From a virus (lineage: Duplodnaviria; Caudoviricetes): DNA of 64,000 nucleotides. Both the position numbers and the translations under genes were made by a program. The stretch covers positions 1 through 64,000 of the IMG/VR virus record IMGVR_UViG_3300033498_000048. One strand, written 5' to 3'. Positions 19,861 through 32,614 of the stretch are shown in pieces (within the stretch, counting starts at the first letter, position 1; every line of letters starts with the position of its first letter). A model generated the notes under the pieces. The model was not told the DNA's origin. It did not search any database and was given only the letters and a program-made list of their open reading frames with translations.

Positions 19861-20253
19861 ACTATAATACTCTCAAGGATTGTTATATTGTGGAACACAT
19901 AATACACATTTTATTCCAAAGAGTCAACATAAATTTGTGTATTAAGCTAGAAACGTTCTTTTAATGTCTTTCACAGTTGTTCCATATAGTAACAATTCGT
20001 AAACTGTATTAGTGTCACTATGATTCCAAAGCGTTCCAGAATCAATAGACTTAAGTATTTTGATGATTGTTGTTTTAATCGACTTTCTATTAATAGGCTA
20101 AATGAGTAGTTTGTACCATAATATCCCTATGGATTACCTTTCCAGCCCACATAGTTCGAGTAATTCTTGACGTGGAGTTTTGTGAGATTTGTTTATAATT
20201 CACATTATATTGAGTTTGTTATTAACCAGTTTACTTTTTAAAACATCTATTTG

Positions 20254-20343
20254 TGGATATGGAAGGAATTGAACCTACGATGTTTACCACGAGGGAACGG
20301 ATTTACAGTCCGATGATGCACAACCAACAGCACCCTCATATCC
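20254..20343 (-). tRNA. tRNA-Tyr(GTA)
   Basis: Acceptor GGATATG/CATATCC, A73, loop CTGTAAA, long variable arm, T-loop TTCAATT. Confidence 0.85.
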
Positions 20344-20352
20344 AAATTTATT

Positions 20353-20440
20353 ATTTAATAATTTACCAGAAACAATCCGATTCGGTGTTTATTTCACCAA
20401 AGAAGTAACCGAGTCATTCATCATGGCAAATTATTAAATA
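20353..20440 (-). ncRNA. short Y RNA-like gene (no tRNA module)
   Basis: End stem ATTTAATAATTT..CCA/TGG..AAATTATTAAAT enclosing TGATGA...GGTTACTTC...GATTGTTTC. Confidence 0.6.
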
Positions 20441-20477
20441 TTGTGTGGATGTTATTTCCACACATTTATTATTTAAC

Positions 20478-20551
20478 TGGTGCATCTGGGAGGAATTGAA
20501 CCTACTTCGCTCGATTATCAGTCGAGTGTTAGACCATTTAACTACAGATGC
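20478..20551 (-). tRNA. tRNA-Ile(GAT)
   Basis: Acceptor GCATCTG/CAGATGC, CCA, arm CTCGA-CTGATAA-TCGAG. Confidence 0.9.
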
Positions 20552-20843
20552 AATTGTAATATATCTTTTGAAGTCCATATCAAACAAATTGTTTATCTTT
20601 TAACAACATTAATAGAATTAAAAGATAAATGTTGACTTCACTGTTCACCTAGTAAATTAACGTATTCAAAATTCCCAGATTCAACAGAAGCTAGTACCTT
20701 TAGTATTTCATTTTGTAATTCATCACCACTTATATTTTGATTAGACCCTGGATATACATCTATTAGTGTTAGTCCAACATCATTCAGTTTATCGTTTAAA
20801 TCATTCACATTACACCTATATTCGTAAATTCGTTGAGTCTATT

Positions 20844-21119
20844 CTACCAACTGTAGACTTTTTTGATTTGCACACTTTCTATAACATACCAATATTGCCA
20901 TGTTCCACATTCACCGTTAGGGTCATCGACCCCACATTCATCGTAATCGACAGAGGTTATAACTTCCACATCATACCTCAAGTTATCAACCATCATATCA
21001 AATTTAAAGGTCTTTGTACCTTTAAACCAGTTACATCCAATGTTACACAGTTCGTTTCTGATAAAATACCAGATTGCTTCCTCTACATCAACAGATTTAA
21101 TGGTACGCAATTCAATCAT
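20844..21119 (-). CDS. hypothetical acidic protein
   Basis: ATG at 21119 (MIELRTIK); the longer 21206 call runs into tRNA-His. Confidence 0.6.
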   Translation of the reverse strand: MIELRTIKSVDVEEAIWYFIRNELCNIGCNWFKGTKTFKFDMMVDNLRYDVEVITSVDYDECGVDDPNGECGTWQYWYVIESVQIKKVYSW

Positions 21120-21151
21120 AATAACTCCAATTCTAACCAACACTTCATTAT

Positions 21152-21225
21152 GGGCGATTGATGGGAATTGAACCCACATCTTTGGGGTCACAACCCAACA
21201 CTTCAACCACTAAGCTACAATCGCC
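21152..21225 (-). tRNA. tRNA-His(GTG)
   Basis: G-1:C73, arm TTGGG-TTGTGAC-CCCAA, T-loop TTCAATT. Confidence 0.9.
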
Positions 21226-21330
21226 ATCGTTTTGAACTTTAGCTCAATCTATATGGATTCCATATATCTTAACTATTATAATACATTAATTCACATAACA
21301 TAAAAGATGTTAGATTTGATAATAAAACCA

Positions 21331-21381
21331 TGGACGCGAAAGGACTCTAACCTTAACTTACAATTGATTCAATTTGCGCCC
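21331..21381 (-). pseudogene. tRNA remnant (acceptor plus T-arm; D and anticodon arms deleted)
   Basis: GGGCGCA...AAGG-TTAGAGT-CCTT-TCGCGTCCA, only about 51 nt. Confidence 0.45.
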
Positions 21382-21402
21382 TAGAGTTTTATTATTGATA
21401 AT

Positions 21403-21489
21403 TGGTACGGATGATGGGACTCGAACCCACACGCTCTTTCGAGCAAGGGATTTTAAGTCCCTCGTGTCTACAATTTTCACCACATCCGC
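21403..21489 (-). tRNA. tRNA-Leu(TAA)
   Basis: GCGGATG/CATCCGT, A73, CCA, loop CTTAAAA, long variable arm. Confidence 0.92.
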
Positions 21490-21503
21490 ATTATTTGAAA
21501 AGT

Positions 21504-21578
21504 TGGTCGGAGCTGGGAGAATCGAACTCCCTTAATCTGGTTCCCAAAACCAGCGACTAACCAATAGCCTAAACTCCG
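21504..21578 (-). tRNA. tRNA-Pro(TGG)
   Basis: CGGAGTT/AGCTCCG, CCA, arm CTGGT-TTTGGGA-ACCAG. Confidence 0.9.
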
Positions 21579-21735
21579 TTTATTGTTTTCGTTTCGCACT
21601 TTTGATGGTGGCGAAACACCATTTTAACTTGATAGACTAAAGCAATTTCCCCGTAGCGTGTGGCTGAATCTATTGCTAACAGCTCAACGAATTTCACGTT
21701 GCGATTGATACCTACGCGAGTTTGTCTATCTATTT

Positions 21736-21818
21736 TGGTAGGCGACCTGGGACTCGAACCCAGAATGACATGGAGTCTAAATCCACTAGCTTTGCCAATT
21801 TGCATTAGTCAGTCGCCC
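21736..21818 (-). tRNA. atypical tRNA-Leu(TAG)
   Basis: GGGCGAC/GTCGCCT, A73, CCA; arm GTGGA-TTTAGAC-TCCAT; extended 5' connector and only a 6-nt variable region. Confidence 0.8.
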
Positions 21819-21824
21819 ATATTA

Positions 21825-21937
21825 TTTAAAAATTAACTAGAAACAATCTAAAACAGTATTAGAGGTTGAAATCATTGTTCCAACCTATTTCAATATAATG
21901 GAAGTAACCGTTTCATACACCATAGTTAATTTTTAAA
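21825..21937 (-). ncRNA. Y RNA-like gene (no tRNA module)
   Basis: End stem TTTAAAAATTAACTA/TAGTTAATTTTTAAA; TGGTGTA-TGAAAC-GGTTACTTC ... GTTTTA-GATTGTTTC; internal hairpin AGGTTG/CAACCT. Confidence 0.65.
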
Positions 21938-21940
21938 CCT

Positions 21941-22032
21941 TGGTGGGTAATGTAGGAATCAAACCTACTAGAGTCCTTTCGGAACTGACAGATTTACAGT
22001 CTGTTGCGACCCTTCAACTTCGCCGATTACCC
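21941..22032 (-). tRNA. tRNA-Tyr(GTA), second copy
   Basis: GGGTAAT/ATTACCC, A73, CCA, arm ACAGA-CTGTAAA-TCTGT, long variable arm. Confidence 0.88.
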
Positions 22033-22047
22033 TCTATTTTTACTTTG

Positions 22048-22118
22048 TGGATGCCCTAAGAGTCGAACTTAGAAGGTCAATATTACAGTCAGTCCCCGAT
22101 ACACTTGACTAGACATCC
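22048..22118 (-). pseudogene. degenerate tRNA with broken anticodon arm
   Basis: Acceptor GGATGTC/GGCATCC, D stem AGTC/GACT and T-arm CTAAG-TTCGACT-CTTAG intact; anticodon/variable region about 5 nt short and unpaired. Confidence 0.55.
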
Positions 22119-22447
22119 TTTTATTATTTGAGCCGTTTATTGGACTTTAACCATTGAGGCAATCACTCCTCACACACTTTAGAAACGACTTGGAAATTTA
22201 TCATTAAATGCTACAGCAAAATCATTACCGAACCTAACTAATATTTCATAATATACTTTGATTCGAGTTGACCTATTTAATACAAATTCTGATACTTCAT
22301 TGGTAAACTCGTTATTAACAAAGTATTCAGCAGCTTCTTCAACATCTAACATTTTATGTACCTTAACTTGATTGCTTGATTAAGTGTCACATTTTAAACT
22401 ATTTTAAAACAATGTCAACACTTTTTAAACAATCAAATGTTATTATG

Positions 22448-22519
22448 TAGCGAGTGTGGGAATCAAACCCACGACCTTTGGCTTATGAGACCAAAAAGCT
22501 ATCACTGCTATAACTCGCT
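22448..22519 (-). tRNA. tRNA-Met(CAT), body resembles initiator type
   Basis: AGCGAGT/ACTCGCT, arm TTGGT-CTCATAA-GCCAA; lacks the three G-C pairs typical of initiators. Confidence 0.8.
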
Positions 22520-22720
22520 ACATAATAACACTTTAATACATATTCCCTAATATTCCAGGACGATACAACTCCTTTGAACACTTTACACATCTATAAACAT
22601 GACATTTGTAACTTTCACTCACAATAATACTATTATAGTGAATGTATTTGAATACATGATTACAAAACCAACGCCTAAAAAATAACATTTCATTCACCCA
22701 CAACAACTTTAAATAAACAC

Positions 22721-22860
22721 ACTAGAAACAATCAAATACAGATATTATCGTGCTTTTACCATTAAGCTAAATGTCCACAAATATTGGACATTAAGAGAAT
22801 CGAACCCTCCTAAGTCTGCTAGACAGGCAGCCACACTCCCAGAGTGTGACAGCACCATTA
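22721..22860 (-). ncRNA. chimeric tRNA-Asp(GTC) / Y RNA-like gene
   Basis: 5' part GGTGCTG, D-like arm, CTGC-CTGTCTA-GCAG and T-arm; 3' part closed acceptor AATGTCC/GGACATT, D-arm TAGCTTAATGGTAAAAGC and GATTGTTTCTAG. Confidence 0.6.
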
Positions 22861-22865
22861 TTTAT

Positions 22866-23117
22866 TTAACAATTCAATCGTTTTAATTGGTTTACATCAT
22901 TTATCGTTCTACCAAAAATAACACATTTTTTAGTCATGTACCAATTAGACGCTTTAGTTACTTGACCAACTTTATATTCAATGAAAACATTATCACTTTT
23001 AAATTGAAATGATTGTGGATAATGTTTATTCGCATCATTTTTAAACTTTGGAGCAAAGGTCTCGATTAAAACTAAATACTCAGAAATAGCTTTCTTTTCA
23101 TCACTTGATAACTTCAT
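22866..23117 (-). CDS. hypothetical protein (paralogue of 23427-23639)
   Basis: ATG at 23117 (MKLSSDEK); the longer call overlaps tRNA-Asn. Confidence 0.65.
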   Translation of the reverse strand: MKLSSDEKKAISEYLVLIETFAPKFKNDANKHYPQSFQFKSDNVFIEYKVGQVTKASNWYMTKKCVIFGRTINDVNQLKRLNC

Positions 23118-23150
23118 TTTCAATTCCACTGATATTTCAAATAATATTAG

Positions 23151-23236
23151 CTCTATTGGGAGGACTCGAACCTCCATACGGTTTCCCGAATACAAAGCAT
23201 TAACAGTGCTTCCTCTTGCCATTAGAGTACAATAGA
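23151..23236 (-). tRNA. tRNA-Asn(GTT) with long variable arm
   Basis: TCTATTG/CAATAGA, G73, arm AAGCA-CTGTTAA-TGCTT, variable region TGTATTCGGGAAACCGTAT, T-arm GGAGG-TTCGAGT-CCTCC. Confidence 0.82.
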
Positions 23237-23365
23237 GCTAATATTACTAAATTGACGTAAAACATTCAATAGCTATGTTTATCATTTAAATATGAAGTAA
23301 CTATCATATACACTATAAAGGTTTCACTTATCAAGTTATTTAGTAATTATAAATTACTTGATTTA

Positions 23366-23639
23366 TAATGTCAAGCGTTTTAACTGGTTTACATCATTTG
23401 TTTTCACTCCAAACACCGTTACATCTTTACATCTTTACATCTTTAGTCATGTACCAATTATCTAGTTCTTTATTTCCACGCACAACTTTATAATCAATGT
23501 CAAGATTAGGATTCATAAACTGGAAAACCTGTAAATGGTGTTTAGTTGAATCATTTTTAAACAGATATGTAGCATTTACTTGAATCAAATCCAAATATGT
23601 TTGAATTGCCGATTTTTCAGCCACAGTTAATTGTTTCAT
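23366..23639 (-). pseudogene. paralogue of 22866-23117, frameshifted by an 8-bp tandem repeat
   Basis: (AAAGATGT)x3 at 23421-23444 gives a premature TAA; a single copy restores TKDVTVFGVKTNDVNQLKRL, matching TKKCVIFGRTINDVNQLKRL. Confidence 0.7.
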
Positions 23640-23713
23640 TGTACTACCTCATAATATATGTGTTCAAATCATAATGCACATTATATTTATAAGGTACTAC
23701 CGTGTCAAGTGTT

Positions 23714-24808
23714 TTATTTAAAACTATGTTCAAACACTAATATCTTCTTGTTCAATTCTTCTAACAATTCCAACCGTTTATCTTCTTTAAATGGTTGGAT
23801 GGTTATTAGTTGCTTCAAGTCAACATCAAATGATTTTTCAACAATATCGAGCTTACAAGATGAATGAAATATCGGTAAACAATTATTCCAAACTGCTCCA
23901 ATAAGCCTATCAATAGATATTACATTAGTGTCATATGCTGGAAAAACCATTGTATATCTAGTCCTTGATAACCTTTCGTTGTATTCATTCCAACTCAAAT
24001 ACCGATTATTAACACCAACCCTATCACTCTTAATATAAATTTCTGAATCGGTAAAATTATTTGCGAATCCATATAACTCGTTTTTATATAGTGTATCCCT
24101 ATTATGGGATTTCATATAAGTTGTATATCCACCAATGAAATTTATATTCTTATCAAGATTCGGTTTGATACTATGATTCAATAAATAATATTGATGTGAG
24201 TCCAACCTATTTGTATCATATTGTGGAATACCATATCCATAATATTTGTAATATTCATATTTTGGATAAATAGTTTGAAACAAATCACACGACATTTCAG
24301 TTGTATCAAAATTGTATTCGTGTAATGGAATTTTATATTCATTGTGAGCCTTTAACATCACCAATATATTAAAAATCCTAGATGCAGCACTCATAAACTT
24401 AAGTTGTCCAGAATCAAATGGAAATACATTACACCTGCGACTATTCCTAAAAAAATGTGAAGTGTGTTGAACATAACTTCCAATAATAAACAATTTTGAA
24501 TAATGCTGGAGGCTACTAACATCTATTTTTTCATAAACATCGTACCAAGATGTATATTGATGCGATATATACTGCTCATATAATAAATGTAACGAGAAGT
24601 TTATATCCAACCCCATCTCATTATTAAAGAATGTTATATCACTATTCGTTTTGTTATTTGATAACATATCAACATCAAATCCGATAGATTTTAAGATGGC
24701 AAGATGCCTTCGCCAATTTGCAGCATTAGTGGAAGTCGAAGTCGAAGCTCCAGTATAAAACAATATTTTAGACTTATTTTCTACGCTTGTATTATTCACA
24801 TCAATCAC
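23714..24808 (-). CDS. probable GT-B-fold glycosyltransferase
   Basis: 364 aa; C-terminal YNERLSRTRYTMVFPAYD...IDRLIGAVWNNCLPIF resembles the GT-B donor-binding segment of phage glucosyltransferases. Confidence 0.5.
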   Translation of the reverse strand: MIDVNNTSVENKSKILFYTGASTSTSTNAANWRRHLAILKSIGFDVDMLSNNKTNSDITFFNNEMGLDINFSLHLLYEQYISHQYTSWYDVYEKIDVSSLQHYSKLFIIGSYVQHTSHFFRNSRRCNVFPFDSGQLKFMSAASRIFNILVMLKAHNEYKIPLHEYNFDTTEMSCDLFQTIYPKYEYYKYYGYGIPQYDTNRLDSHQYYLLNHSIKPNLDKNINFIGGYTTYMKSHNRDTLYKNELYGFANNFTDSEIYIKSDRVGVNNRYLSWNEYNERLSRTRYTMVFPAYDTNVISIDRLIGAVWNNCLPIFHSSCKLDIVEKSFDVDLKQLITIQPFKEDKRLELLEELNKKILVFEHSFK

Positions 24809-24828
24809 CTATACGATATATAAAAATG

Positions 24829-24836
24829 TATTTATA
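24829..24836 (-). promoter_or_regulatory. T4-type late promoter TATAAATA
   Basis: Exact consensus on the minus strand, 20 nt upstream of ORF 24808. Confidence 0.55.
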
Positions 24837-24857
24837 CACAGTATAGGTGCTATTTAG

Positions 24858-25913
24858 TTATTGTTTGTGTACACTAAATTTCATAAGGTTTGGAGTAACA
24901 ATATTCACGAATCTATCAACTCCAGGTTCATCTTTTAATTGTGTCCAATCAGTGCCATTCCAGTACTTGAATATTTCAGACTCGTTCCAGTGTTTCAAAT
25001 CACATCTTGAAAATGTTACGTTACACTTATTACAAGCGTATGGAGTATCAGCTCTATTTTTATACCTAAGTCTACGTCTGATGGTTTGCATTTCCTCACC
25101 ATACCAAAACTTTTTAAAACCATCAACACCATCTAAAACATTGCCAAACTTGCCTTTAGTGACTTGTAATCCATCTTGACAGCACAACAAATAAGAACCA
25201 TCGGACGCTACAGTTACATACAAAAACGGTTGGTTACAACGTCTAGTTAATGGTTTTTCTAATGGACGCATATTGAAGTTTTTTTGAGCAGTTCCCCTAT
25301 CCCAATTCATGTTTCCATACCAATTCCCTAATAGTCCAGCTCTAAGTCTTGACTTGGGCCATGTAGATGGTTCGTCCATCAACACAATGATTTTCAAATC
25401 TGGACCATGATATTTCCATGGAGATGGAGCATTTTCAGGTTTATTATAATAACTGTAAAATGGATAACCAGATTCGGTTGCTAATTGCTCATATCTTTCA
25501 TGTGGTCCATATTGGTCAACATATAACACATTAGCACCAGCATCCAACAAATCTTTCATTTTATACTTGCCAGACAATAACTTTGTTCCATTTGTTGTAA
25601 TTTGGATTTGTGTCAATGGAGCAAGTTCTCTAGCAACTGGTAACAAAGTTAATAATTCATCGTTTAATGTCGGTTCACCCACGAACCCACATAAATCAAC
25701 TCTAACTGTTGGGGAAACCTCATTCAATATTTCAAATGTTCTTTTCCACACCAATTCATTCATTTTATTGTTATTAGATTTTGGAATTAAATCAGCACAA
25801 CAATGGTCGCATTTTAAATTACACCCAAATGCTGGTTCAATACTCCACACAATAGGAGAGGTTGAACCCAATGGTTTAATTTTTTTAGGAGTTTTTATTT
25901 TTTTAAATTCCAT
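24858..25913 (-). CDS. radical SAM / SPASM(twitch)-domain protein
   Basis: CNLKCDHC (CxxxCxxC), GEPTL, ITTNG, C-terminal RCNQPF...VASDGSYLLCC...CNKC. Confidence 0.88.
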   Translation of the reverse strand: MEFKKIKTPKKIKPLGSTSPIVWSIEPAFGCNLKCDHCCADLIPKSNNNKMNELVWKRTFEILNEVSPTVRVDLCGFVGEPTLNDELLTLLPVARELAPLTQIQITTNGTKLLSGKYKMKDLLDAGANVLYVDQYGPHERYEQLATESGYPFYSYYNKPENAPSPWKYHGPDLKIIVLMDEPSTWPKSRLRAGLLGNWYGNMNWDRGTAQKNFNMRPLEKPLTRRCNQPFLYVTVASDGSYLLCCQDGLQVTKGKFGNVLDGVDGFKKFWYGEEMQTIRRRLRYKNRADTPYACNKCNVTFSRCDLKHWNESEIFKYWNGTDWTQLKDEPGVDRFVNIVTPNLMKFSVHKQ

Positions 25914-25929
25914 TACAGTTCCCTAGTTT

Positions 25930-26110
25930 AATTACAAAATGAAGTTTGATTACAATAGAAACAATCATATGTGGTATGATTTGGCTATTGCTCTACCAAC
26001 TGAGCTACATTAACATAATTTGTTAATGGTGAGATTTGAACTCACGACAAATAGGTTTAAGATGTAACCACACATTTCACCATATTATAATCCAACTTCA
26101 TTTTGTAATT
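25930..26110 (-). ncRNA. yrlA: YrlA-type Y RNA (permuted tRNA mimic)
   Basis: Long end stem; TGGTGAA-ATGTGTGGT-TACATCT; T-arm GTGAG-TTCAAAT-CTCAC; loop-closed acceptor CATTAAC/GTTAATG; D-arm TAGCTCAGTTGGTAGAGC; ACCACATAT-GATTGTTTCTA. Confidence 0.8.
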
Positions 26111-26124
26111 AAACGGTTAATTAT

Positions 26125-26197
26125 TCCCCCTAGACAGAATCGAACTGTCATTCCCCGATTATGAGTCGGACACTTTTAACCAATAAGTTATAGGGGG
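26125..26197 (-). tRNA. tRNA(CAT), Ile2-like or elongator Met
   Basis: CCCCCTA/TAGGGGG, A73, arm TCCGA-CTCATAA-TCGGG. Confidence 0.85.
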
Positions 26198-26205
26198 TTA
26201 ATCTT

Positions 26206-26277
26206 TGGAGCGGATATGGGAACTCGAATCCCAGCAAATGGGTTGGAAGCCCATTGTCACACCTCGTGATTACCCGC
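26206..26277 (-). tRNA. tRNA-Gly(TCC)
   Basis: GCGGGTA/TATCCGC, U73, CCA, arm ATGGG-CTTCCAA-CCCAT. Confidence 0.88.
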
Positions 26278-26301
26278 AATATATTTATTTAATGTAATTT
26301 G

Positions 26302-26374
26302 TAAGCATGGCTCGATTTGAACGAACATTCCATGAGTCAAATTCATGTGTACTAACCAATTATACTACACGCCT
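26302..26374 (-). tRNA. tRNA-Gln(TTG)
   Basis: AGGCGTG/CATGCTT, arm CATGA-ATTTGAC-TCATG, T-loop TTCAAAT. Confidence 0.8.
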
Positions 26375-26389
26375 ACAAATTACACTAAA

Positions 26390-26489
26390 GTGATTTTACG
26401 GGGCTATGCTTTATCATAGAACCAACCCATGCTTTTAACATATGCAAAGCTCTAACCTTATAGGGAAAACATAAGCCCCGTAAAATCAC
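26390..26489. ncRNA. unknown RNA or hairpin closed by a 16-bp perfect stem
   Basis: GTGATTTTACGGGGCT/AGCCCCGTAAAATCAC around a 68-nt interior. Confidence 0.45.
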
Positions 26490-26646
26490 TCAATTAATTT
26501 TAATAATTCATATTGTTTCAATAGTCTTTTTTAACGTTATATTGACATCCACAACTCCATTCTTTTCCCTCGCATTTTAATTTGTGATAACGGTAAATGG
26601 CTTCCTCCACTTTTCATATTACACTAAACTCCGAAATGGTACACGT

Positions 26647-26844
26647 TTATGGATTCAAATAATATTGAACATCAGCATCCCACATCCAACTATTATCATC
26701 TAACCTCCACCCACCATACTCTTTTGTGAACAATTTAATGTTACCAGTTAGATTTTGAATTAGATATTGATTTCCAATTATTGGAACAACATCAATCACA
26801 CTAATCCACCCTAGTTTCTTTAACTTATTGTTAGACAATCTCAT
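26647..26844 (-). CDS. hypothetical protein
   Basis: 65-aa ORF. Confidence 0.55.
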   Translation of the reverse strand: MRLSNNKLKKLGWISVIDVVPIIGNQYLIQNLTGNIKLFTKEYGGWRLDDNSWMWDADVQYYLNP

Positions 26845-26873
26845 AATTAATTATTCCCATAACAAAACAAATT

Positions 26874-26966
26874 TGGCGGAAGAGGTGGGACTCGAACCCA
26901 CAAACCAACCTTCATTGGTCAAACAGTTTTCAAGACTGCGCAGTTCACCTATACTGTAGCTCTTCC
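26874..26966 (-). tRNA. tRNA-Ser(TGA)
   Basis: GGAAGAG/CTCTTCC, G73, CCA, loop CTTGAAA, long variable arm. Confidence 0.92.
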
Positions 26967-26968
26967 AT

Positions 26969-27044
26969 TGGTGGATGGTATTGAAATCGAATCAATTTCC
27001 CTGGATTTTCAGTCCAGTGCTATTACCAAACTAGCTCACCATCC
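26969..27044 (-). tRNA. tRNA-Phe(GAA)
   Basis: GGATGGT/ACCATCC, CCA, arm CTGGA-CTGAAAA-TCCAG. Confidence 0.9.
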
Positions 27045-27313
27045 AATATTTTTTAAATAATCATTGTTTCTATATAATAACCTTTAATTGGTATTATTTA
27101 AAATTGTTAATTTGAACTCCAACCGTCATGTTGGAGAATAAGCTAGTCAACACAAATCTTGACGTATCAGAGGACTATATTACACACTGTGACATCAATA
27201 TCCTAGAAATGCTGAGTTCTATCAATTTTAAATAATAACACTATCACCACAAGTTTTTTAAATTATACATTGGCAGTTAATGATTGTCAACATCTAATTT
27301 CAATACTAATAAA

Positions 27314-27345
27314 TGGTGTTCCTGACTGGAATTGAATCCGTAACA
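27314..27345 (-). pseudogene. tRNA 3' remnant (T-arm, acceptor 3' strand, CCA)
   Basis: GGA-TTCAATT-CCAG-TCAGGAACACCA with no upstream cloverleaf. Confidence 0.4.
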
Positions 27346-27350
27346 TTAAT

Positions 27351-27500
27351 TTTTAAAAATACTAGGAATTTGCGAATATAGAGATTTTACACGCTCTACC
27401 ATTAAGCTAAATGACCCTCGTATTGGTCATTAGAGGAATCGAACCTCTATCATGTTCGCCGAATGAAGTAACTATATTCTACACCATAGTATTTTTAAAA
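27351..27500 (-). ncRNA. yrlA: YrlA-type Y RNA immediately downstream of the Ro60 gene
   Basis: 14-bp end stem; TGGTGTA-GAATATAG-TTACTTC; T-arm AGAGG-TTCGATT-CCTCT; closed acceptor AATGACC/GGTCATT; D-arm TAGCTTAATGGTAGAGC; CTATATTC. Confidence 0.82.
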
Positions 27501-27595
27501 ACTTTTTTAATCTACTTCCAAGATGTAGTATTTAGTACACCTTGGAAGTAAGACAATTAACTAACTGTTGCAAGTGCTAACTCATAGATAGTTTC

Positions 27596-29014
27596 CTAAC
27601 TATCTTCACTTTGATGGTTATCTAACCCTTCCATTGAAGCAATGTAAGTCAAAAATGAACTAGACCAACCACTGATTTCAGATGTCCACACACCTTTATA
27701 ATTAACACCATGCGAATGTGAACTTACATCAATAATGTAATTAAACTTCCCAAAAGGTTTTGGAGGTGCTTTTACTCTATCACAGTCCTGTGAGTCACTA
27801 AAGATAATAATCCTATCAAAATCTGTACCAACATTCAATTGACACCAATCTAAACATTGTCTAGTGAATATGCCACCTCCACCAACTTTAACCCTTTCAT
27901 CTTCAATTTGTTTTACTAAACCAAATCCTTTGTTTGGATATTTAATATGGTTGTGTTTGCCAGTATAAGTAGAATCAACCCCAGCAGTAATGACAAACTC
28001 AAAATCTTCACACATATTAATCGCAGCTATTGCCATTGCTGTTCCAGCATCCAATCGAGTGAACTCTGAATCTTTAGATGAAATCTCACTTCGCATTGAA
28101 CCAGATACATCAAGAATAATCAAAGACTTTCCAGTTAATTTACTTACATTTGCATAGCTACGGAACATTACTTCTTCAATATCACGCTCAAATTCAGGTG
28201 AATATCTAACTGCTTTAAAGTAATCTAAAGGAAGTAACATTCCAGTTTTAACATTAGCAATAGCGTTTTGAATAACAAGTCTATCAACTCCAGCAGCTTT
28301 CATGTTTCTGATATTGCGCAACAATGCTAATCCACCCAATTTGTTTTCTTGGATTAATCTTGTCCATGATTCTTTTTTATCAGCTCCACTAGACAATGCA
28401 ACTTCCCATGTATCTGGAGTTTGTAACGTGTTTTCAGCCAATTTTTTAAAGCAATCTGCTTGTTCTTGTGTTACTGTTTTTGGGTGTACCATAAACATGA
28501 CATCACGCAATTTAACTGCATTACCAGTACCACGATATTTAGCTAAAGAATATTCGTTAAAATTCAAAAACGCTTTCGCTATTCCACGTTTCATAGCACT
28601 TGGTAGTGGACGTTTACCTCCATTCCAGTACAATGAAACCAAATCTGATAACATATCAGCACGAGTACAAACTTTAGGAATGACATCTGCAATCAATGTA
28701 CGATGTGATTCATGTTTAGCCATTTCAACAATCATCAAAATTGGAACATGACGTAACTTTTGCATAACACGACATTCAATAGCCAATTTAGCAACTTCTT
28801 CTGGTTCACATAGTGGAATCAACACTTTAATCTGCGATGCAACTTCTAAACCATCGACATACGCATTGTTTTCCCACAACAAACAAGCTAACACTAATCT
28901 TCTCAATGTTAAGATATTGCTTTGTTTAGCTGCTACATTACCCATTCCACCTGCCAATCGAACGTCTTGTTCAAAACGGTTATCAACAGCTTTAGTGTTC
29001 ATTTTTTTAGACAT
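27596..29014 (-). CDS. rsr: Ro60/TROVE-domain RNA-binding protein with C-terminal vWA domain
   Basis: LRRLVLACLLWE, LRHVP, RADML, F.EYSLAKY, VKLRDVMFMVHPK, TWEVALS, ALLRNIRNM; MIDAS LDVSGSM and IIFSDSQ; GAGG RBS before ATG 29014. Confidence 0.92.
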   Translation of the reverse strand: MSKKMNTKAVDNRFEQDVRLAGGMGNVAAKQSNILTLRRLVLACLLWENNAYVDGLEVASQIKVLIPLCEPEEVAKLAIECRVMQKLRHVPILMIVEMAKHESHRTLIADVIPKVCTRADMLSDLVSLYWNGGKRPLPSAMKRGIAKAFLNFNEYSLAKYRGTGNAVKLRDVMFMVHPKTVTQEQADCFKKLAENTLQTPDTWEVALSSGADKKESWTRLIQENKLGGLALLRNIRNMKAAGVDRLVIQNAIANVKTGMLLPLDYFKAVRYSPEFERDIEEVMFRSYANVSKLTGKSLIILDVSGSMRSEISSKDSEFTRLDAGTAMAIAAINMCEDFEFVITAGVDSTYTGKHNHIKYPNKGFGLVKQIEDERVKVGGGGIFTRQCLDWCQLNVGTDFDRIIIFSDSQDCDRVKAPPKPFGKFNYIIDVSSHSHGVNYKGVWTSEISGWSSSFLTYIASMEGLDNHQSEDS

Positions 29015-29032
29015 TTTCAATCCTCATTACAT

Positions 29033-29066
29033 TAGGAACAATCTAATCGTTACATTAGACACCATA
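29033..29066 (-). promoter_or_regulatory. minimal Y-RNA-like motif in the Ro60 mRNA leader (putative autoregulatory site)
   Basis: TA-TGGTGTC-TAAT-GTAACG-ATTA-GATTGTTCC-TA reproduces the shared internal loop, 7 nt upstream of the GAGG RBS. Confidence 0.6.
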
Positions 29067-29316
29067 AATATTCATATATTGCTTTAATGTGGCTTCCACA
29101 GTTGCCACATTCTATCAATTAATTCTTTGCCAAAAGCTTGTTGCATATCTGTTAAACAATCACTACGCATACAACGTAATTGTGATAATGTTTCAAAGTC
29201 AACAGTAACTTGGGTTATATGTATTATCTATCAACACATTAAATCCGTCTACTTCCACTTTATCCACCTTTATCAGTTTAATTTATTTCCATGTCACTCG
29301 ATAAATGATTAATTTG

Positions 29317-29389
29317 TCACCCAGGTGGGACTTGAACCCACAACCCTTCAATTAAAAGTCGAATGCTCTTCCTATTGAGCTACTGGGTG
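29317..29389 (-). tRNA. tRNA-Lys(TTT)
   Basis: CACCCAG/CTGGGTG, D stem GCTC/GAGC, arm TTCGA-CTTTTAA-TTGAA. Confidence 0.9.
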
Positions 29390-29459
29390 ATAATTGAATC
29401 ACTAAACGTATCTTTTTATTATAGATACTTCCTAACTATCTGTCAACTGACTATTCACT

Positions 29460-29696
29460 TTAAGCTAACATCACATTATATTTCACACCTAAACCCAACA
29501 CTTGAGAGTTTTGTCTGAAATTTACATATTCTCCAGGTTGGTTTGGAACTTCAATTTTAAAATGTGTATAAGCATATAATCCATGCAATTTTACCATTTT
29601 AATGAATTGCATTAACAACATTTCATTTCCACAATCTTCACGGAATTTTGTGATTAGTGGTACTAATTTTTTCAAAACTTTATCATTTGCGTTCAT
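29460..29696 (-). CDS. hypothetical protein
   Basis: 78-aa ORF behind a TTGACT-N16-TATAAT promoter. Confidence 0.55.
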   Translation of the reverse strand: MNANDKVLKKLVPLITKFREDCGNEMLLMQFIKMVKLHGLYAYTHFKIEVPNQPGEYVNFRQNSQVLGLGVKYNVMLA

Positions 29697-30063
29697 AATA
29701 ATTAAGATTCAAGGTTAGTTAATATTTTTTTTATTATACAGTGTTATCCATCAAAGTCAACAAAATAATTAAAGATTACACCTAAAACTAACGCATCATA
29801 TTCGTGCGTTGATTAACCCTCCAGAGATTTCATGCTCTAATTCATCAATTAGTAGAATCAGATGTAATCTAAAAACATTAAAGTTATATACCTGTTCATA
29901 TAATAGCCACGAGTAAGGGGACAAAAACCCAAGTTAAACGTCTAGCCTAAAATTATACGAAGTGAGCTAGTTTACCTTCCACTCGTTTGTATTATCCAAT
30001 CCAATGGAATTAACAACAACCAAACTTAAAGTCAATAAAATATATAACTTAATGTTCCGAACT

Positions 30064-30363
30064 TCATAATTTTAAATTATAGCTATATTGAGGTTCAATG
30101 TCAACTTTTTTCAAACAATCTGCTGTTTTTTCTGACATGAATAGACAATCGCCCCGTCTGATTATTTGTCCATCTTCCATGACATCTTGTGTATCGACTC
30201 CAAATAAATCATCACAAAATCCATCTATTTCTTTTCGATACTCGTCACTAAATTCAACATCTTTCGATATTCTAAATCGAGATGCTTGAATTGGTCTAAC
30301 AATATGAACACTAAGTCCACCATAAGTTAAACCATTCTTATGTGTAGATTTGGGTTGGTTCAT
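30064..30363 (-). CDS. hypothetical protein
   Basis: 99-aa ORF, 4-nt coupling with the upstream ORF. Confidence 0.6.
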   Translation of the reverse strand: MNQPKSTHKNGLTYGGLSVHIVRPIQASRFRISKDVEFSDEYRKEIDGFCDDLFGVDTQDVMEDGQIIRRGDCLFMSEKTADCLKKVDIEPQYSYNLKL

Positions 30364-31079
30364 TTAGTTTCCTCCAGATTATATGTTACAATAGGTTTAA
30401 TACGATATAAATATTCTACTTTTGATGTTATTCTATTCATTGTAGATTTGATGTCATCGGATGATTTGAATGTCGTTCCGTCTCGTAACTTGACTATTCT
30501 TGGATTGACACTATTGAAAAATTCAACTCGACTAATTTCATTAAAATAATTAGCATCTAACGAACCATTACCGTGCTTTGTAAATATTATATTTACGGTT
30601 GGTGTACCACTTGATAAAAAATTATAATACCTTTCGATTGAAATAAAACTATCTTCATATAAGATTTCATGTGGATTAATTGGAACAAGTGAAAAGTGAC
30701 ACCTAGTATGTTCTTGCTTAATGTATATCTTATCATCAAATCCAATTGAATCTAAAACCCTGCAAATGTTAGTTAGTGATAACAAGTCACGAATATATGT
30801 TTCCAACTGGATATAATTAAATTCATTGCAGGTTTCGGTATATGGAAGCACAATTGGAACTTCTACAAATCCATGTAATTCAACAAATCCCAATAAGCGT
30901 TCAACTATAGTCTGCTTACTCGTATTACAATCGACAGTAATGCCAAGCTGTTTTTGTGTGATAAGTAAGTCTTCAATATCAATTTTGTCACTTTCAACTA
31001 TTGATTGAATCGCACATTTCGTCCCGACAATACTGACAAGGAACTCTATTTGTTTTAATAATTTCACACAACACTCCAT
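30360..31079 (-). CDS. hypothetical protein
   Basis: 239-aa ORF. Confidence 0.65.
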   Translation of the reverse strand: MECCVKLLKQIEFLVSIVGTKCAIQSIVESDKIDIEDLLITQKQLGITVDCNTSKQTIVERLLGFVELHGFVEVPIVLPYTETCNEFNYIQLETYIRDLLSLTNICRVLDSIGFDDKIYIKQEHTRCHFSLVPINPHEILYEDSFISIERYYNFLSSGTPTVNIIFTKHGNGSLDANYFNEISRVEFFNSVNPRIVKLRDGTTFKSSDDIKSTMNRITSKVEYLYRIKPIVTYNLEETK

Positions 31080-31146
31080 TTAGTTTCCACAGGATAATTC
31101 TTCTAACAGGTTTAATAAAATAATCTAGCAACATATTCATTCCATT

Positions 31147-31229
31147 TGGTAGGCAGTAAGGGACTCGAACCCTTAAAGGCTTGGATTCTTAGTCCAATAG
31201 CTGTACCAATTCGCATTAGCCAACTGCCC
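31147..31229 (-). tRNA. atypical tRNA-Leu(AAG)
   Basis: GGGCAGT/ACTGCCT, A73, CCA; arm TTGGA-CTAAGAA-TCCAA (A34); same layout as tRNA-Leu at 21736. Confidence 0.8.
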
Positions 31230-31733
31230 ATTTGTGTAAATCGAATTTAACATATCAAGCTTTCCACTAACCACATTCAGCTTATTTGTTATGTCGTTTT
31301 TGTACTCAACATAACTGCTAACATCCATATTAGGGTAACTAGATGCTCCTTGTAAATAATCATTAGTGTTTTTTAAATCAATTAACAGTCTATCTTTTAT
31401 TCCAATAACACGGTCTATCTCACTGATAATTTCACTTTTTGACATTTGGACTGATAAACCAATCTCGACATATTCAGTAATATCACGCCTATCGGTTATT
31501 ATAACGTCTTCACCCCGTTCAATGATATATCTAAACGATGGATTAATAATCAACTTTACAATCTTACCACAAGATTGTGTAACAGCAATAGATTTTTTAT
31601 TTATCTTAGTGATAATACCACGCAATAATCCATAATAACTATCATTAACTGTTATGGTGTCTCCCAATAACAAATCTGAATTAGATAATATACTAATGTA
31701 ATAAACCATTTTAGCTAACACTAAACACCTCAA
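31173..31733 (-). CDS. hypothetical protein; 3' end overlaps tRNA-Leu(AAG)
   Basis: 186-aa ORF with a TTGACA-N17-TATATT promoter at 31760-31788. Confidence 0.6.
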   Translation of the reverse strand: MRCLVLAKMVYYISILSNSDLLLGDTITVNDSYYGLLRGIITKINKKSIAVTQSCGKIVKLIINPSFRYIIERGEDVIITDRRDITEYVEIGLSVQMSKSEIISEIDRVIGIKDRLLIDLKNTNDYLQGASSYPNMDVSSYVEYKNDITNKLNVVSGKLDMLNSIYTNGQLANANWYSYWTKNPSL

Positions 31734-31759
31734 CGTTATTGGACTATATTAATTTGCAC

Positions 31760-31788
31760 AATATACGTTAAAGTATGTTTAGTGTCAA
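31760..31788 (-). promoter_or_regulatory. sigma70-like early promoter
   Basis: TTGACA-N17-TATATT on the minus strand. Confidence 0.6.
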
Positions 31789-31797
31789 CATTTATTT

Positions 31798-32388
31798 TCA
31801 CAAGTCGTAAACACGCCTTCCTTTAGCTATCGCATCTTTTGCCATTCTACCTAGGTAGTTACAGGCTTCGTCCACTGGAGCCTCAATGGGTTCTTTAAAT
31901 ATGAACGGTCTACCATTTACCTTAGTATTGAACATTCCAGTTTTTCCGAACACAGGATTAGCAAACTTAATAACTTTGTTCATTCCAGGATAACCACTAT
32001 CATTAGTTCCAATTAACAATCCTTCTGTACCACCTTTTGGAACATACAACACTGAATCTTGGTCATACTTATTTCCCAACTTTAGTATCTCAGACTTCAA
32101 ATCACCCGTATCTTTTAAATCAACAACAAATAATGATTCTTCAGAAACTTCAACGGCATCTTCAGTACCATAATCTTCAATATAAGCACCTTTTACAGCA
32201 GTTACACCGAATTTCTTTTCTAGTGTAGATTTTAACTCACGGTTTAATCCTTGGTTAATAGCTTTGGTATTTTTACCACGGAACGCTGTTATGAATCCAG
32301 TATCGTGGTCTTGCATTGCTTGCCATGTGCGACTTAAAGAAGCCTCACTGATTACATTACTTTTATAAAATTCATCAAACGATAACAT
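31798..32388 (-). CDS. conserved T4-like phage protein with CTS-like leader
   Basis: MLSFDEFYK..ISEASLSR...GFITAFRG...EESLFV...KYDQDSVL; TATAAATA at 32412-32419 upstream. Confidence 0.7.
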   Translation of the reverse strand: MLSFDEFYKSNVISEASLSRTWQAMQDHDTGFITAFRGKNTKAINQGLNRELKSTLEKKFGVTAVKGAYIEDYGTEDAVEVSEESLFVVDLKDTGDLKSEILKLGNKYDQDSVLYVPKGGTEGLLIGTNDSGYPGMNKVIKFANPVFGKTGMFNTKVNGRPFIFKEPIEAPVDEACNYLGRMAKDAIAKGRRVYDL

Positions 32389-32411
32389 ACACACCTCTAA
32401 GGTTAAATATG

Positions 32412-32419
32412 TATTTATA
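32412..32419 (-). promoter_or_regulatory. T4-type late promoter TATAAATA
   Basis: Exact consensus 23 nt upstream of ATG 32388. Confidence 0.6.
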
Positions 32420-32614
32420 TTCACCAATTATTAAGATAAGTCAATACCCTAGTTTCTGCAATTTCTTCAATTAACGCACACGCCAATCTCAATAAATATG
32501 TATGACAAGAACTATATTGTGGATTTAATTTATTACTATATAAATTTCATCTGTAATCATACCACTCAACACCATCTTTAAAAGACACATTTCTATGGTT
32601 TCTACCAATTTGTT

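Follow-up and report, generated by a model that had tools for sequence, protein, structure and literature searches.

The stretch of DNA analysed here, called the window in the following, comprises the first 64 kb (64,000 nucleotides, 31% G+C) of the virus record IMGVR_UViG_3300033498_000048 from IMG/VR (Duplodnaviria; Caudoviricetes), a complete phage genome of 305,782 bp with direct terminal repeats that may stem from a microbial-mat metagenome. It contains two genes, A and B, for tRNA-Leu(UAG) and tRNA-Leu(AAG), in which the connector between the acceptor stem and the D arm is predicted to pair with the short variable region and thereby to form an additional helix that we call X. As judged from sequence, the family to which both genes belong is clearly tRNA-Leu by its identity elements, with a secondary structure that lies outside the cloverleaf.

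Both genes had been proposed in a sequence-only reading of the window, as tRNA-Leu(TAG) and tRNA-Leu(AAG) of 83 nt each, and we found them at precisely the positions and with the lengths given there, on the minus strand (Table 1). They share a 7-bp acceptor stem with G1.U72 at its top, A73, an encoded CCA end, an anticodon arm of 5-7-5 layout, and a T arm with a 5-bp stem and a UUCGAGU loop. Their acceptor and anticodon stems are 25 nt apart, versus 19-22 nt in ordinary tRNAs, and the connector from the acceptor stem to the D arm measures 7 nt instead of the usual 2. Folding out both genes also bore out the 6-nt spacing noted earlier from the anticodon to the T stem, and both lack the long variable arm of class II tRNAs. 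The gene at 21403, offered as the long-arm comparison, is indeed a class II tRNA-Leu(TAA), with a GCUC/GAGC hairpin as its variable arm.

The same reading had recognised that the extra connector nucleotides are complementary to the variable segment over four positions in either gene. This stands for gene A, with four pairs in UGAC/GUCA, where U8 (21811) could form the fourth pair with the A at 21766. In gene B three pairs remain, GGC/GCC, whereas the fourth position is a U8.U mismatch. The exchange of an A-U for a G-C pair between the two extra helices is present in the sequences. In the proposed fold there are five helices, with 7 bp in the acceptor stem, 3 bp in X, 3 bp and one non-canonical pair in the D stem, and 5 bp each in the anticodon and T stems. 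Helix X is predicted to split the usual four-way junction into two three-way junctions, one of the acceptor, X and T stems with strands of 1 nt (U8), 3 nt (N-U-U) and 0 nt, and one of the X, D and anticodon stems with strands of 3 nt (U-W-A), 1 nt (A26) and 0 nt. In gene A, the linker from X to the D arm occupies 21805-21807, and the single A that leads to the anticodon stem lies at 21787.

Table 1. Predicted features of genes A and B and the class II comparison gene, in window coordinates; bit scores refer to R1, the covariance model introduced below
Feature	Positions	Strand	Details
Gene A, candidate five-helix tRNA-Leu(UAG), 83 nt	21736-21818	minus	CCA encoded at 21736-21738; A73 at 21739; R1 94.8 bits
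Gene A, putative helix X, 5' strand	21808-21810	minus	GAC, RNA nt 9-11; from sequence and family covariation
Gene A, putative helix X, 3' strand	21767-21769	minus	GUC, RNA nt 50-52, abuts anticodon stem; from sequence and family covariation
Gene A, D arm	21788-21804	minus	RNA nt 15-31; U.U, G-C, C-G, A.A; loop AAUUGGCAA
Gene A, anticodon arm	21770-21786	minus	Anticodon UAG at 21777-21779; loop UUUAGAC
Gene A, T arm	21747-21763	minus	CUGGG UUCGAGU CCCAG
Gene B, candidate five-helix tRNA-Leu(AAG), 83 nt	31147-31229	minus	CCA encoded at 31147-31149; A73 at 31150; R1 97.5 bits
Gene B, putative helix X, 5' strand	31219-31221	minus	GGC, RNA nt 9-11; from sequence and family covariation
Gene B, putative helix X, 3' strand	31178-31180	minus	GCC, RNA nt 50-52; from sequence and family covariation
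Gene B, D arm	31199-31215	minus	U.U, G-C, C-G, G.A; loop AAUUGGUAC
Gene B, anticodon arm	31181-31197	minus	Anticodon AAG at 31188-31190; loop CUAAGAA
Class II tRNA-Leu(UAA), same phage	21403-21489	minus	Ordinary; long variable hairpin GCUC/GAGC; comparison gene

Covariation of helix X and the remaining fold

Taken by itself, the 3-bp complementarity found in A and B would be weak evidence for a helix. We therefore rely on homologues gathered by pattern scans in which columns 1-13, including the connector, and columns 25-58 were left unconstrained, so that pairing in X was not selected for. Together with the copies from the window and one GenBank phage, these scans yielded alignment A1, which consists of 56 distinct, gapless sequences of 83 nt and underlies the family counts given below. 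The first of the checks suggested for the extra helix, the collection of homologues and analysis of their covariation, has thereby been carried out, and pairs 10-51 and 11-50 do covary. Pair 11-50 occurs as CG (30 sequences), UA (19), AU (4) and GC (1), pair 10-51 as GC (29), AU (25) and UA (1), and pair 9-52 as GC and GU in 27 sequences each. Altogether 97% of the helix X cells are paired, and all three pairs are intact in 53 of the 56 sequences.

Pairing at this level is lost in the controls. When the partners were shuffled among the sequences, 77% of the cells paired (standard deviation 2; maximum 84.5% in 5000 shuffles), and when the 3' partner was slid by 1-3 columns the value fell to 12-69%, with 58-60% for a slide of a single column. 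In a blind, all-against-all mutual-information scan of A1, the best 16 column pairs are exactly pairs of the five proposed stems; 11-50 ranks fifth and 10-51 ninth among them. The acceptor, anticodon and T stems all covary as well. Seven fully complementary types of X are found (GAC/GUY, GGU/ACY, GGA/UCY, GGC/GCY, GAU/AUU, GAG/CUU and GUC/GAU), interleaved over 30 backbone clusters defined at 85% identity, and variants with one extra nucleotide ahead of the 3' strand of X retain the pairing. The proposal of an additional connector-variable helix in a tRNA-Leu devoid of the long arm is consequently supported by covariation across 56 homologues, and we regard helix X as very probably real. The evidence for it is evolutionary and not thermodynamic.

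The D arm of the family comprises U.U (15.31), G-C (16-30), Y-G (17-29) and R.A (18.28), closed by the loop AAUUGGNAN. R1, a covariance model built from A1, recovered further copies that the patterns had missed. Among these are three copies with G-C and one with G.U in place of the U.U at 15.31, substitutions that speak for pairing at this position. In length and layout this D arm, in gene A as in the family, matches the D arm of Escherichia coli tRNA-Leu.

Several other folds were considered and set aside. The 79-nt fold that ARAGORN assigns to gene A moves the acceptor stem inwards by 4 nt at the price of mismatches, an artefact of the standard spacing that the program imposes. RNAalifold offers a UGGN/GCUA hairpin with a 3-nt loop in the D region; because double changes are almost absent from it and G18G19 would be buried, we gave this hairpin no weight. 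Minimum free energy (MFE) folds of single sequences break the T and anticodon arms and are uninformative.

Some copies deviate in their own ways. The X pairing of L045:12883-12965 is not in register, both copies on L050 (3001-3083 and 2483-2565) are mismatched at pair 11-50, the 5' half of the acceptor of L033:4110-4192 mismatches its 3' half (a recombinant or a pseudogene), and L022:5720-5800 has a shortened D loop without GG.

Leucine identity, a proposed core and competing readings

All 56 anticodons are Leu anticodons (TAG 37, CAA 7, TAA 6, GAG 3, AAG 2, CAG 1), and U33 and A37 are present in every sequence. A73 is found in 55 of the 56, with one row out of register owing to a 1-nt deletion; 45 of the genes encode CCA, and U8 occurs in 54. 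U48 (column 55) and A20a (column 26) are invariant and lie, like A73, in columns that the searches left free. A14, A15 and GG are likewise present in the family, in columns that were fixed by the second search pattern and partly by the first. The leucyl-tRNA synthetase (LeuRS) of E. coli depends on an identity set of A73, G18G19, A20a and the A15-U48 Levitt pair and does not require the long arm (PMC9976931); a U8-A14-A20a triple is seen in crystal structures of tRNA-Leu (PMC12360207). The family retains this identity set. An altered recognition by LeuRS, which had been put forward as one consequence of the unusual fold, is, if anything, improbable, given that no published bacterial identity element is missing.

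The decoding capacity fits a role in translation. Leucine codons in the long open reading frames (ORFs) of the phage are TTA (54%), TTG (23%), CTA (10%), CTT (9%), CTC (2%) and CTG (2%), and the three Leu tRNAs of the phage (UAA of class II; UAG and AAG of the X type) cover the most-used of them. On many contigs, as in this phage, a UAG gene of the X type is accompanied by a UAA gene of class II, and L040, L041, L022 and L046 each possess two to three X-type genes with complementary anticodons, which are TAG, TAA and CAA on L040 and L041. A dedicated, phage-encoded LeuRS as a partner was considered and dropped: no LeuRS domain was found in the phage genome, and its sole class I synthetase is a methionyl-tRNA synthetase (MetRS) of 516 amino acids encoded outside the window at about 244729-246279 (minus strand; PF09334, E 6e-125; TIGR00398, 437 bits).

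Two further traits of phage tRNA-Leu genes came to our attention. Leu anticodons with A34 (AAG) recur in X-type and class II genes alike (gene B, L055:1216-1298, and L040 near 7940). G1.U72 sits atop the acceptor stem in 31 of the 56 X-type copies and in phage tRNA-Leu of all three architectures, as it does in the tRNA-Leu copies of the T5-like phage STG2, an Acinetobacter phage and the Lactobacillus phage Bacchae.

The sequence data taken together suggest that A and B are probably functional, leucine-charged tRNAs with a split-junction core. They would serve as leucine-accepting elongator tRNAs of a phage-borne family, charged by the LeuRS of the host, with A reading CUA and CUG and B reading CUU in this phage. 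In an ordinary tRNA, the strands 8-9 and 44-48 run antiparallel in the deep groove of the D stem, where they make the triples 9-12-23, 10-25-45 and 13-22-46. The equivalent strands of A and B, one of them lengthened, would instead pair with each other. The connector, extended from 2 to 7 nt, reads U8, G9-N10-N11 and U-W-A; its nt 9-11 would make three Watson-Crick pairs, helix X, with the first three nucleotides 3' of the anticodon stem. The N11-N50 end of X abuts the anticodon stem with 0 nt in between. As U8 lies directly 5' of G9 and U48 two nucleotides past the 3' strand of X, the opposite end, G9-Y52, should adjoin the layers formed by U8-A14 and A15-U48. We envisage that X and the weak D stem stand side by side on the anticodon stem and are bridged on top by U8-A14 and A15-U48; such a packing could replace the three base triples and would keep in place the elbow of D and T loops and the face read by bacterial LeuRS. 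The lengths of the junction strands would fit this arrangement under the Lescoute-Westhof rules for three-way junctions.

A number of observations weigh against this proposal. The one sequencing run on record that contains the stretch is a DNA run of a microbial-mat metagenome, and no RNA run is listed for it. The nearest-neighbour energy of X, a 3-bp helix that closes a multiloop, is unfavourable (mean +1.75 kcal/mol), X is present in the MFE fold of 1 of the 56 sequences, and the RNAalifold consensus of A1 does not contain it. G9 is near-invariant though its partner alternates between C and U, and it may have a role beyond pairing, for instance in an additional contact. Three members (L045, L050 and L033) break at least one X pair. 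Coaxial stacking of X on the anticodon stem would leave the arm from the anticodon to the elbow about two layers short. The LeuRS of E. coli is reported not to charge a type I tRNA-Leu of Streptomyces (PMC6614811), and loss of the long arm is thus not automatically tolerated.

The fold might be real and the RNAs non-translational, such that A and B act as mimics of tRNA-Leu, either as decoys or sponges for host nucleases and toxins directed against tRNAs or as partners of phage proteins. The richness of the cluster in Ro60/Y-RNA-like genes (a TROVE/Ro60 gene and YrlA-like RNAs) and the scores of A and B below the threshold of standard tRNA models are in keeping with this idea. A decoy, however, would not have to preserve U33, A37 and an anticodon loop of 7 nt, or to confine its anticodons to six different Leu triplets that occur in complementary sets within one phage; A73, CCA and the LeuRS identity elements have likewise been retained, and the anticodons fit the codon use of the phage. 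We consequently judge such a role to be improbable.

Considerably less probable still is a fold without the extra helix, in which a canonical D stem (10-12/28-30) closes a 15-nt D loop and the covariation in X merely mirrors shared ancestry. This GCU/AGC stem with an enlarged loop had been named from the outset as the structure that would overturn the proposal. Gene B can indeed pair G-C, C-G and U-A at these positions, thermodynamic folding does not yield X, and our shuffle controls for X are uncorrected for phylogeny. Across the family, however, the pairs 10-30, 11-29 and 12-28 are formed in 74% of the cases, with mismatches in 26 of the 56 sequences at 10-30 and in 11 at 12-28, and they never covary: no double change occurs, and nt 10 and 11 vary freely opposite an invariant 3' side, AGC. 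Shared ancestry is also difficult to reconcile with seven types of X distributed over 30 backbone clusters, and with the drop in pairing that a slide of one column already causes. That A and B are functionless, decaying remnants of tRNA-Leu genes (variable arm deleted, connector inserted), as their poor ARAGORN and Rfam scores, the unmatched acceptor 5' half of L033 and the missing GG of L022:5720-5800 might suggest, is hardly credible in view of the compensatory changes that maintain all five stems in 56 distinct sequences from contigs of 4-379 kb and of a length fixed at 83 nt, since pseudogenes would not covary.

If A and B are functional tRNAs with a split junction, one may ask why phages would carry them. 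The leading idea, in our view still rather doubtful, is counter-defence, a purpose that had also been raised in the sequence-only reading: the design would keep the LeuRS identity elements and shed the long arm that some host factors recognise, and helix X would serve as a structural patch that allows a tRNA-Leu without this arm to fold and to be charged in many hosts. Candidates for the evaded factors would be nucleotidyltransferase toxins of the AbiE/MenT type. According to a preprint (bioRxiv 10.64898/2026.01.19.700257), the abortive-infection toxin AbiEii likely prefers tRNAs with long arms, as MenT3 does, and tRNA-Leu-3 is a target of MenT1. The simple version of this idea is weakened because the phage keeps long arms on its tRNA-Ser, its tRNA-Tyr and one tRNA-Leu. 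If true, the idea would mean that a tRNA architecture new to nature's known repertoire has an identifiable selective cause, and it would supply a ready scaffold for orthogonal Leu tRNAs.

Distribution, detection and genomic setting

The five-helix family is widespread and almost confined to phages. Among viral contigs the pattern matched 54 loci, 49 of which carry family members, on contigs of 4-379 kb, many of them larger than 100 kb. Among prokaryotes, represented by one genome per species (185,579 genomes), six loci matched and four hold family members. These four all reside on contigs of metagenome-assembled genomes (MAGs), 9-103 kb in length and with dense tRNA arrays; in the two MAG contigs that we inspected, phage-typical genes adjoin (NAMPT together with phosphoribosyl pyrophosphate synthase, and an HNH endonuclease). 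The large phages in which the family is spread come from many habitats, and their hosts, reported or binned, are varied: Synechococcus, Rhizobium and, by MAG bin, Acinetobacter, Betaproteobacteria and Bacteroidota. Two cultured phages possess unannotated copies: Synechococcus phage BUCT-ZZ01 has two, and Rhizobium phage RHph_I1_18 has one that fills the gap between its annotated tRNA-Pro and tRNA-Tyr genes. The same tRNA islands also carry ordinary tRNA-Leu genes of type I (77-79 nt) and class II (84-91 nt). A megablast search with 2 kb of the stretch returned no useful near-identical phage genomes. On L009, L013 and L027 (221-233 kb), our first pattern also matched a conserved tRNA-like gene outside the family, whose 5' region is unusual and whose anticodon loop reads GGCAGAAAC.

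Standard tools detect these genes poorly. ARAGORN, applied to 61 copies on the fetched loci, missed 47, assigned 8 to Leu but misplaced their ends, and took the other 6 for Gly, Ser or Val; in the window it reports gene A just as the 79-nt gene mentioned above and leaves gene B unreported. The Rfam tRNA model (RF00005) scores A at 23.5 and B at 23.2 bits, local to model positions 9-63, at a gathering score of 29. On L023, L032, L043, L045, L056, L060 and L068, ARAGORN calls of tRNA-Gly(acc), tRNA-Ser(act) or tRNA-Val(gac) span about the full 83 nt of X-type genes, and tRNA calls with rare anticodons in phage annotations may be misfolded members of the five-helix family.

Across the whole phage genome, ARAGORN finds 17 tRNA genes, all on the minus strand and all within 17.7-29.4 kb. 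In the ordinary-looking class II tRNA-Leu(UAA) among them, the D loop reads AAAAUUGUAGA and offers one G in place of the expected doublet G18G19, which belongs to the LeuRS identity set. The acceptor stem of this tRNA also begins with G1.U72, and its elbow may deviate more than that of the other two Leu tRNAs of the phage. Inside the cluster lies a gene for a TROVE/Ro60-like protein (27596-29020, minus strand; PF05731; RNA-binding protein phrog_850), and sub-threshold matches to YrlA (Y RNA-like) occur at 25952-26083 and 27363-27471 (both minus strand). About 570 nt upstream of gene B, the ORF 31798-32427 (minus strand) codes for a member of the S-adenosylmethionine lyase family (PF23780, E 2e-15). 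Two mechanically called ORFs on the minus strand overlap the genes under study: 31173-31733, without a Pfam or PHROG match, overlaps gene B by 57 nt, and 21569-21805, which is probably spurious, covers most of gene A.

The minus strand of the region 20000-32500 contains five perfect TTGACA-17-TATAAT sites (at 30104, 29446, 27290, 23708 and 23374) and several promoter-like sites with 11 of 12 matches, one of which, 22418-22391, is upstream of the run tRNA-Tyr, Y-like RNA, gene A, tRNA-Pro and tRNA-Leu. The total number of such sites represents merely a modest excess over shuffled sequence.

Comparison with known tRNA architectures

The cloverleaf is among the most conserved of RNA folds. Few natural elongator tRNAs are known to deviate from it, and each of them has been informative about recognition by synthetases and tolerance by the ribosome. 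In the family described here, compensatory changes appear to preserve a fifth helix no less strongly than the four classical ones, and the sequences of the family suggest that bacterial leucine identity can reside in a tRNA body that lacks the class II arm and has its junction split. The blind spot of the tRNA finders entails that the number of phage tRNA-Leu genes is underestimated, and RHph_I1_18 and BUCT-ZZ01 offer cultured systems for studying what phages gain from re-engineered tRNAs. A review of non-canonical natural tRNAs (PMC7609411) lists no connector-variable helix among those that it covers. Our full-text searches of the literature turned up no description of such a helix or of a short-arm phage tRNA-Leu, which is not proof of novelty.

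With the class II tRNA-Leu of bacteria such as E. coli and Bacillus subtilis, A and B have in common the 7-bp acceptor stem, A73, Leu anticodons, a standard T arm, a D stem of three pairs plus a pair of the R13.A22 type, the D loop of the family with A14, A15, G18G19 and A20a, and U48 for the A15-U48 Levitt pair. They differ from it by the lack of the long hairpin, with 6 nt from the anticodon to the T stem, by a connector of 7 instead of 2 nt and by the predicted split of the junction. In addition, G9 is predicted to pair with nt 52, in contrast to the G9-G12-C23 triple described for tRNA-Leu (PMC12360207).

The long arm is likewise missing from type I tRNA-Leu, as in tRNA-Leu(CAA) of Streptomyces coelicolor, which is charged by bacterial LeuRS (PMC6614811), in mitochondria, and in phages (77-80 nt), where we found type I-like copies in T5-like, Acinetobacter and Lactobacillus phages and type I genes in many metagenomic phages. 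The phage type I genes share with the X type the D loop, the T arm, often G1.U72, and their location in the same tRNA islands. They are, however, cloverleaves with a connector of 2-3 nt and an unpaired variable loop of 4-7 nt, whereas the X type has a connector of 7 nt and is predicted to pair three of its six variable nucleotides; unlike most X-type copies, they are found by ARAGORN.

Other natural tRNAs also follow a helix arithmetic different from that of the cloverleaf. Allo-tRNAs and tRNA-Sec combine acceptor and T stems of 8/4, 9/3 or 9/4 bp with a retained long variable arm, and some have Leu or Ser identity. A and B, by comparison, are 7/5, have no long arm, and would place the new helix elsewhere. 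tRNA-Pyl and the mammalian mitochondrial tRNA-Ser(UCN) possess a connector of 1 nt and an anticodon stem extended by nt 26 and 44, which adjoin this stem on its two strands. With these tRNAs, the X type would share a helix on the anticodon stem that is lengthened at the cost of the variable region, and a non-standard core. The difference would lie in the origin of the 5' partner, which the X type is predicted to recruit from a lengthened connector, so that the extended helix carries the D arm as a side branch.

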